Shown: positions 35,012 to 35,140, counted from the first letter of the whole stretch. The stretch: DNA of 62,922 bases, filler included, from Basidioascus undulatus (GCA_000826855.1; 6 parts of 6 records of this genome joined end to end with filler, not necessarily neighbours in it); one strand, 5' to 3'. Program-made: numbers and translations. Notes: a model not told the origin generated them from the sequence alone.

Positions 35012-35030
35012 AAAAAAAAGCTTATTAAAA
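35012..35030 (-). terminator. RNA polymerase III terminator of the permuted tRNA
   Basis: T4 (35027-35030) and T8 (35012-35019) on the minus strand immediately after the trailer. Confidence 0.75.
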
Positions 35031-35038
35031 TATGGTAG

Positions 35039-35121
35039 TACGAGTGGCGCGCTCTACCACTGAGCTAAACGGGCATCTTCAATTATGCCCATTGGCCGGA
35101 TTGAACGACCGACCTCACCAT
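35039..35121 (-). tRNA. tRNA-Thr: circularly permuted tRNA-Thr(CGU): 3' half 35121-35086, 11-nt spacer, 5' half 35074-35039
   Basis: Minus strand ATGGTGAGGTCGGTCGTTCAATCCGGCCAATGGGCA-taattgaagat-GCCCGTTTAGCTCAGTGGTAGAGCGCGCCACTCGTA; rejoined 5'+3' gives a complete cloverleaf, all stems WC or G-U, anticodon CGT, split at 37/38. Confidence 0.88.
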
Positions 35122-35124
35122 GGT

Positions 35125-35140
35125 CTCTACCATTAGGGTA
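35125..35140 (-). promoter_or_regulatory. A-box-like element upstream of the tRNA 3' half
   Basis: TACCCTAATGGTAGAG matches the tRNA's own D-arm/A box TAGCTCAGTGGTAGAG at 12/16 and precedes the B box GTTCAATCC. Confidence 0.55.

Follow-up and report, generated by a model that had tools for sequence, protein, structure and literature searches.

A permuted tRNA gene is recognized by a 3′ part encoded before the 5′ part on one strand with a short intervening sequence, by a complete cloverleaf with anticodon after reordering, by a strict or relaxed bulge-helix-bulge that leader and trailer form at the junction, and by a T-stretch downstream; in algae an upstream TATA-like or AT-rich promoter is an associated feature, not a strictly defining one. 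The nearest described counterparts of the locus reported here are those of Cyanidioschyzon merolae, which has type II genes for Thr(CGT) and Thr(AGT) among others (Soma et al. 2007; Soma 2014, Table 1, PMC3978253). The intervening sequences listed in that table for permuted genes range from 1 to 74 bp, and the C. merolae Thr(CGT) gene is entered there with a 37/38 junction and an intervening sequence of 31 bp. The sections of the same 2014 review on maturation describe a route in which the transcript is cut, circularized and reopened, as shown by RT-PCR in algae (PMC3978253). Other permuted genes have been reported in the green algae Ostreococcus and Micromonas, in Auxenochlorella (2025 paper, PMC12636532), in chlorarachniophyte nucleomorphs (Maruyama et al. 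2010), and in the archaeon Thermofilum pendens (Chan, Cozen and Lowe 2011, cited by PMC3978253). Where a 2026 review deals with permuted tRNA genes it places the eukaryotic ones in unicellular algae, and in the corresponding portion of a TSEN paper C. merolae is the sole permuted case mentioned. The papers listed by full-text literature searches placed permuted tRNA genes in algae and archaea and none in fungi, in agreement with the initial annotation of the DNA studied here, which knew of no fungal example.

The locus lies in a 62,922-base stretch of fungal DNA (the window, whose first letter is position 1 for all coordinates given here) and has the order of parts, cloverleaf and T-stretch of a type II permuted tRNA gene, in an unexpected lineage. 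From its sequence and that of its paralogs we conclude, with a probability of a little over three in four, that it is a working circularly permuted nuclear tRNA-Thr(CGU) gene of type II (37/38), one of a small basidiomycete family. As far as the accounts cited above describe them, the C. merolae genes resemble it in having the 3′ half before the 5′ half on one strand, a 37/38 junction and a short intervening sequence (11 bp here), in a leader and trailer that pair and are followed by a T-stretch, in a CCA end that is not encoded, and in the isoacceptor itself, Thr(CGT). Going by the same accounts, they differ from it in several respects. The host here is a fungus, and hence an opisthokont, rather than an alga; the junction here departs from the canonical bulge-helix-bulge; an A-box-like motif in the leader takes the place of the upstream TATA-like element, of which none was seen here; the gene appears to be multi-copy, about 8 by depth, versus mostly single genes in C. 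merolae; and expression, demonstrated for the C. merolae genes, is a prediction for the fungal one. The green-algal and nucleomorph genes, in the descriptions cited, are likewise mostly of type II (37/38), have short intervening sequences and are missed by standard scans; their hosts, unlike the fungus, are photosynthetic lineages or the relict nuclei of such lineages, and an AT-rich upstream promoter is assumed for them (PMC3978253). The genes of T. pendens, as summarized there, share with the fungal gene the circularly permuted order and an inferred processing by splicing endonuclease, but they are archaeal, are broken at 59/60, have a strict bulge-helix-bulge and encode CCA.

On the minus strand the region 35147-35012 reads leader, positions 38-73, an 11-nt linker, positions 1-37, trailer and T-runs (Table 1). 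The initial annotation had claimed halves lying back to front, a leader perfectly complementary to the trailer, T4 and T8 runs after the trailer, an intact cloverleaf on reordering, a break at the 37/38 site, and a gene to which standard scans would be blind. All of this held. Every element, including both T-runs, was found base for base where it had been placed, and ATGGTAG pairs with CTACCAT over 7 nt; the cloverleaf, the break and the blindness of the scans were borne out as follows. ARAGORN run on the whole window as written returned 0 tRNAs, and Rfam at its gathering scores returned 0 families from the same sequence, that is, no contiguous conventional tRNA. When the two halves were sliced out and joined in normal order, ARAGORN called a 72-nt tRNA-Thr(cgt), broken exactly at 37/38, with stems of 7 bp (acceptor), 4 bp (D), 5 bp (anticodon) and 5 bp (T) and the anticodon loop CU-CGU-AA. 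When the halves were swapped and the trailer and leader kept between them as an "intron", ARAGORN called Thr(cgt) with an intron at 37 for all of the flank lengths tried (4/4). The cloverleaf of the window copy contained no mismatches. Folded tRNAs share a usual set of tertiary contacts, and the bases concerned were all present: U8, A14, G15-C48, G18 G19, U33, A37, G53-C61, T54 T55 C56 and A58. The T4 and T8 runs are likely Pol III terminators, a prediction from their sequence and position.

Table 1. Features of the locus and its surroundings, with coordinates in the window and the basis of each assignment.
Feature	Coordinates	Strand	Remarks
Leader	35122..35147	-	Ends ATGGTAG-AGACC
Leader strand of outer helix, ATGGTAG	35127..35133	-	Perfect complement of 35038-35032; in unconstrained minimum-energy fold
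A-box-like motif in leader, TACCCTAATGG	35130..35140	-	Ends 8 nt before position 38
tRNA-Thr(CGU) 3′ half, positions 38-73, 36 nt	35086..35121	-	Sequence and ARAGORN on joined halves
T-loop B box within 3′ half	35107-35097	-	
Linker, 11 nt (intervening sequence between positions 73 and 1)	35075..35085	-	Sequence
tRNA-Thr(CGU) 5′ half, positions 1-37, 36 nt, without position 17	35039..35074	-	Sequence and ARAGORN on joined halves
Anticodon CGT in 5′ half	35042-35040	-	
Perfect A box in 5′ half	35067-35057	-	Consensus match
Trailer strand of outer helix, CTACCAT	35032..35038	-	Complement of leader ATGGTAG
T4 run	35030-35027	-	One A after trailer; 8 nt past A37
T8 run	35019-35012	-	Seven bases after T4; 19 nt past A37
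TGGGCA then T5	34993..35003	-	41 nt past A37, where a 36-nt 3′ half would end

Several controls addressed chance. A loose scan for permuted genes (a T-arm, an acceptor strand, a linker of 0-80 nt and a complementary acceptor strand, followed by ARAGORN after the swap) found 5 candidates in the real window, 1 of which, the locus at 35012..35140, passed ARAGORN; 30 dinucleotide shuffles of the window gave 66 candidates, with 0 passing. The 4 other candidates in the window were taken as chance, ARAGORN having rejected their swapped constructs; one of these, 38677(+) at 38654-38700, consisted of a hairpin resembling a T-arm and, 17 nt away, a complementary 7-mer, and by eye it had neither a D arm nor an anticodon arm. 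Each tRNA half was found once in the window with up to 3 mismatches allowed. Because each half is single in these 62.9 kb and T-runs follow directly after the 5′ half, we rejected the reading that the halves come from two separate split genes with long introns. When the leader was shuffled, 612 of 200,000 versions could still pair perfectly with the beginning of the trailer over at least 7 bp (p ~0.003). A scan of the sequence for bacterial-type promoters and terminators gave nothing relevant. With very high probability the locus is a real genomic feature.

The region was found in three public runs, X1, X2 and X3, all consisting of DNA contigs of about 35 Mb. X1 is dated 2014 and is possibly the source of the assembly itself; X2 and X3 are dated 2025 and come from another study and from one shared sample. 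Contigs were aligned on 34300-35900, where the single-copy depth was 17.3 in X1 and 48 in X2. Besides the locus in the window there were at least four other loci, three in the same permuted order and one showing only a leader and the 3′ half. Records 6 and 13 (10.8-kb contig) aligned without a break from 35039 to 35121, through both halves and the linker, as did record 7, an 88-nt contig whose depth of 45.6 versus 17.3 corresponds to about 2.6 copies. Records 5 and 11, embedded in contigs 12.4 and 29 kb long, ran from the T-loop through the acceptor strand and A73 to a linker of 12 nt that differs from that of the window, and on into the 5′ half. The further locus, with one record each in X1, X2 and X3, carried the exact 3′ half of the window behind a different leader. 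Similarity between copies ended at 35038/39 and 35121/22, which are the edges of the mature tRNA parts; the linkers of the paralogs were unrelated, at about 10-12 nt, and their flanks also differed. The three classes of paralog trailer that were read contained T5, about T9 and T5 runs beginning 2-6 nt past A37, so that the downstream T-stretch is found in the window and in the paralogs alike.

The listed differences of the paralogs were confined to the linker and the acceptor stem. In record 6, U4-A69 replaces C4-G69 and C5-G68 replaces G5.U68; in record 5, C6-G67 replaces U6-A67. Three acceptor pairs were therefore altered on both strands among these two paralogs. These further loci in the same genome, three of them in the same order, together with the double changes in acceptor pairs, strengthen the permuted reading. 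Record 7 has C5 opposite A68, its 6:67 pair falling outside the listed differences near the contig end, and at least one class of copies therefore has an imperfect acceptor stem. The paralog of records 6 and 13 has two further substitutions somewhere in 35041-35068, again near a contig end; if one of them falls at position 34, this paralog would be a different Thr isoacceptor.

We folded a 109-nt precursor without constraints. It reached -41.0 kcal/mol (z = -3.75), a stability equalled by 1 of 200 shuffles, and the fold included the D arm, the leader/trailer helix, the anticodon stem and an acceptor stem that is capped by the linker; a 129-nt version folded into the same structure. The 7-bp helix of leader and trailer occupies the place expected for the outer helix in a 37/38 splicing motif. 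The canonical motif at a 37/38 intron, a 3-nt bulge, a 4-bp helix and a 3-nt bulge, spans seven nt. In the fold, six nt on each strand were left unpaired from anticodon stem to outer helix, namely C32-A37 and, facing them, A38 with positions -5 to -1; with the first helix pair open there would be seven. The junction was thus a 6x6 internal loop and not a 3-4-3 motif, with 2-3 weak pairs in its center. With the tRNA stems enforced, the ten suboptimal folds listed within 2 kcal/mol contained 0-3 weak central pairs in varying registers, and all ten retained the outer helix at 6-7 bp. By eye, the canonical register of the central helix offered 1 of 4 pairs. The caution in the initial annotation, that the junction is relaxed and no strict bulge-helix-bulge, was therefore well placed. 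To our knowledge 37/38 is the sole cut site of opisthokont splicing endonucleases, which makes a design permuted at this point plausible for a fungus. An 83-nt circle, in which the linker forms a loop, still folded as a cloverleaf by computation.

Permutation of a tRNA gene puts the B box of the T-loop in front of the A box of the D-arm. In the sections of the 2014 review on promoters, a B box placed before an A box is considered unsuitable for TFIIIC, and permuted genes are held to persist where an upstream promoter drives transcription and the endonuclease is unusually tolerant (PMC3978253). Inspection by eye of the 50 nt that precede the 3′ half showed no TATA-like element, and the TATA-like or AT-rich promoter associated with the algal genes was thus not found in front of this one. 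The A-box consensus is TRGCNNARYGG. In the leader, TACCCTAATGG (35140-35130) matches it at 8 of 9 specified positions, at an offset of -19 to -9 from A38; the window offers 124,742 positions, and 76 of them (6.1e-4 per position) match with one mismatch or none. The one other leader represented by a single sequence, that of a paralog, was read by reverse-complementing the loose end behind 35122; it carries TAGTCCAGCGG, which also matches at 8 of 9 positions and likewise ends 8 nt before A38. The A-box test was chosen after the first leader had been seen, and no more than this second leader was usable. A third leader entry is a T-rich consensus blended from two leaders with an agreement of 0.58, and hence unreliable; if real, the T-rich sequence of these two further leaders would stop Pol III. 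About 22 nt lie between the A-box-like motif in the leader and the B box of the T-loop, less than in a normal tRNA gene. These positions suggest that the two elements may act as an ordinary Pol III promoter with A box before B box, and transcription would then start upstream of the leader, at about 35150-35160.

The leader also bears on the origin of the locus. When the 8-mer TGGTAGAG, shared by the leader and the 5′ half, was aligned, 15 of 26 bases were identical; a local match such as this 8-mer was reached by 154 of 5000 shuffles. Judged by this alignment, the leader at 35122..35147 resembles a second, decayed version of tRNA positions 1-26. Downstream, the TGGGCA and T5 at 34993-35003 may be what is left of the 3′ end and terminator of an ancestral copy that once followed, a weak suggestion that draws on position, the sequence as a bare local match not being significant (reached by 1292 of 5000 shuffles). 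A decayed leader and such a remnant fit the origin model set out in the 2014 review, in which a gene is duplicated in tandem and the outer parts are then lost (PMC3978253). They would also be at home in a dead relic, an ordinary tRNA-Thr gene duplicated in tandem, stripped of its outer parts and never made into tRNA, and the acceptor mismatch in one class of paralogs points the same way. We consider such a relic unlikely. Decay would hardly be expected to spare a cloverleaf free of mismatches with all of its conserved tertiary bases, a leader/trailer helix at the correct place, and a terminator directly after the trailer; nor would it conserve the halves of paralogs whose linkers and flanks are unrelated, with three acceptor pairs changed on both sides. 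The A-box-like motif, moreover, was kept while the rest of the leader decayed. This pattern suggests that the upstream A box was kept because it and the B box in the 3′ half make up a promoter of A-then-B order again.

Copy number was estimated from the depth of repeated 31-mers. The 31-mer 35037-35067 had a depth of 135 versus 17.3 in X1, and the 31-mer 35039-35069 a depth of 375 versus 48 in X2, about 8 copies in each case; both carry the CGT anticodon region. About eight or more copies would also suit a SINE-like tRNA-derived repeat or a non-decoding mimic in the style of YrlA or Y RNA, whose RNA is never rejoined. At a permissive Rfam threshold the only sensible match in the window was indeed YrlA (26.8 bits, E = 0.0014, 35029-35133 minus). 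Like the fungal gene, YrlA (RF02553) has a T-arm, a closed acceptor and a D-arm in that order on one strand, so that the match independently confirms the back-to-front layout; but YrlA RNAs are bacterial or phage-borne and have no anticodon arm that could be rejoined, whereas the fungal gene has a complete anticodon stem and loop, and 26.8 bits falls far under the gathering score of 69, which leaves the locus outside the family. Unlike YrlA mimics, the copies have a full anticodon arm, with the two stem strands and the seven bases of the loop conserved up to the edges at 37 and 38, where similarity between the copies ends. The copies likewise have none of the common, tRNA-unrelated body or tail seen in SINEs, and their linkers vary freely while the stems co-vary. 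A repeat or mimic is accordingly quite improbable, and we favor a working permuted tRNA gene.

The order T-loop, acceptor, linker, acceptor, D-arm was also sought in metagenomes. This narrow pattern returned 12 loci, of which 0 were relatives and none was fungal; 11 of the 12 were ordinary close-packed tandem tRNA genes according to ARAGORN. The remaining locus (L004:1480-1587, minus), on a bacterial-looking contig, has a T-arm, an acceptor, a 5-nt linker, a complementary acceptor and a D-arm, followed by a ribosome-binding site and an ORF. ARAGORN found no tRNA in it, and Rfam matched it to YrlA at 42 bits (E = 1.8e-7), under the gathering score of 69. The "Arg(ccg)" call that ARAGORN made on the swapped construct was poor, and we judge that the RNA is probably a divergent tRNA mimic of the YrlA type. 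That the pattern which describes the fungal gene also catches such an RNA counts on the side of the mimic explanation.

Long contigs identical to the window stopped at 35063 and resumed at 35093 in both X1 and X2, as expected since the 31-mers there are repeated. Among the contigs aligned, none identical to the window covered 35068-35092, and the paralog records by themselves accounted for the depth over the linker. Since parallel paths are discarded when contigs are built, the absence of an identical contig is not evidence against the arrangement; the link between the two halves of this particular locus consequently rests on the assembly and on the complementarity of leader and trailer. An assembly artefact, in which two loci with common tRNA sequence were joined through the repeat, would account for these breaks, but it is very improbable, given that contigs routinely break at repeated 31-mers, that a perfect 7-nt leader/trailer complementarity is unexpected from a chimeric join, and that the same order is uninterrupted in further contigs from X1 and X2, in two cases within contigs 12-29 kb long, so that even a mis-join would link two permuted genes.

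For the working permuted gene we propose the following course of expression. Pol III, directed by the A-box-like motif of the leader and the B box of the T-loop, would start upstream of the leader, near 35150-35160, and produce a transcript that covers the 3′ half, linker, 5′ half and trailer and ends at the T-runs. This transcript would fold so that the linker closes the acceptor stem and the 7-bp leader/trailer helix extends the anticodon stem across the open 6x6 loop. The tRNA-splicing endonuclease would cut after A37 and before A38, tRNA ligase would join A37 to A38 and yield an 83-nt circle, and RNase P and tRNase Z would open the acceptor end and remove the linker, after which CCA would be added. 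[quoted passage not shown] The second outcome is a conceivable alternative in the fungus: RNase P and tRNase Z would act first and leave a two-piece complex held by the 7-bp helix and the tRNA body, with no circle formed. In budding yeast, according to the relevant section of the 2014 review, splicing is cytoplasmic and end processing nuclear (PMC3978253), and the fungus may by the same logic cut the linker before splicing. The cut-circularize-reopen route of the algal transcripts is nevertheless the maturation that we infer for the fungal one.

A broader claim, which we advance tentatively and regard as possible though the less probable outcome, is that the whole tRNA-Thr(CGU) family of about eight copies is permuted, with no conventional copy and with a leader A box in each. 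Among 13 of the 14 loose-end rows, 0 showed position 37 running into 38 as in a conventional gene, and no joints were listed, which within that scope is a weak hint. If the claim is true, dedicated decoding of ACG would depend on the cutting and rejoining of a back-to-front transcript, and the genes would stay expressible in an organism of the TFIIIC type through a leader A box upstream of the T-loop B box, a promoter solution undescribed for the algal genes; they would also be the first permuted tRNA genes in opisthokonts. The leader A box, if upheld, would be a variation of its own among permuted genes, and its retention would suggest a way to rescue the internal promoter for Pol III. From a fungal family it would follow that permuted genes can also evolve and be maintained in an organism that has the standard tRNA machinery of opisthokonts, and such a family would offer a second, possibly more tractable, system for the study of circular or two-piece tRNA intermediates. 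For annotation it carries a warning: isoacceptors that appear to be missing from fungal genomes may hide as permuted genes.

The host of the locus was judged from the protein-coding sequence around it. The genes on either side of the locus in the window are ordinary eukaryotic ones, and their Pfam domains comprised GRIP, G-patch, RRM, CARME/N2227, zinc-binding dehydrogenase and amino-acid permease. The CARME exon had a single match, to a Rhodotorula diobovata protein (59% identity), and 9 of the 26 matches of the RRM/G-patch ORF carried an organism name: Wallemia, Bondarzewia, Rhodonia, Mycena, Marasmius, Cytidiella, Peniophora and Moniliophthora, with Syncephalis as the ninth. We take all nine of these to be fungi and the first eight, by placement, to be basidiomycetes. 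None of the protein matches of the window ORFs was close. The contig had been called fungal in the initial annotation, with N2227 and UFE1 as flanking genes; the named matches, fungal and mostly basidiomycete, agree with the first point, and N2227 was recovered as Pfam CARME, while UFE1 was weak, with SNARE at E = 0.0038 and Syntaxin-18_N at E = 0.12, below the Pfam cut-offs. An ORF of 706 aa at 8037-10157 (minus) had no Pfam domain and 0 homologues among 8000 scored candidates; it may be lineage-specific, fast-evolving, or no real gene in GC-rich DNA. Paired runs of 44 N occurred at 10427-10526, 20944-21043, 31455-31554, 41948-42047 and 52440-52539, about every 10.5 kb and none near the locus, a regularity that is more suggestive of masking than of gaps in the assembly. 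In seven ORF segments of the window, ACG accounted for 30 of 98 Thr codons, so that an isoacceptor with the anticodon CGU would be in demand.
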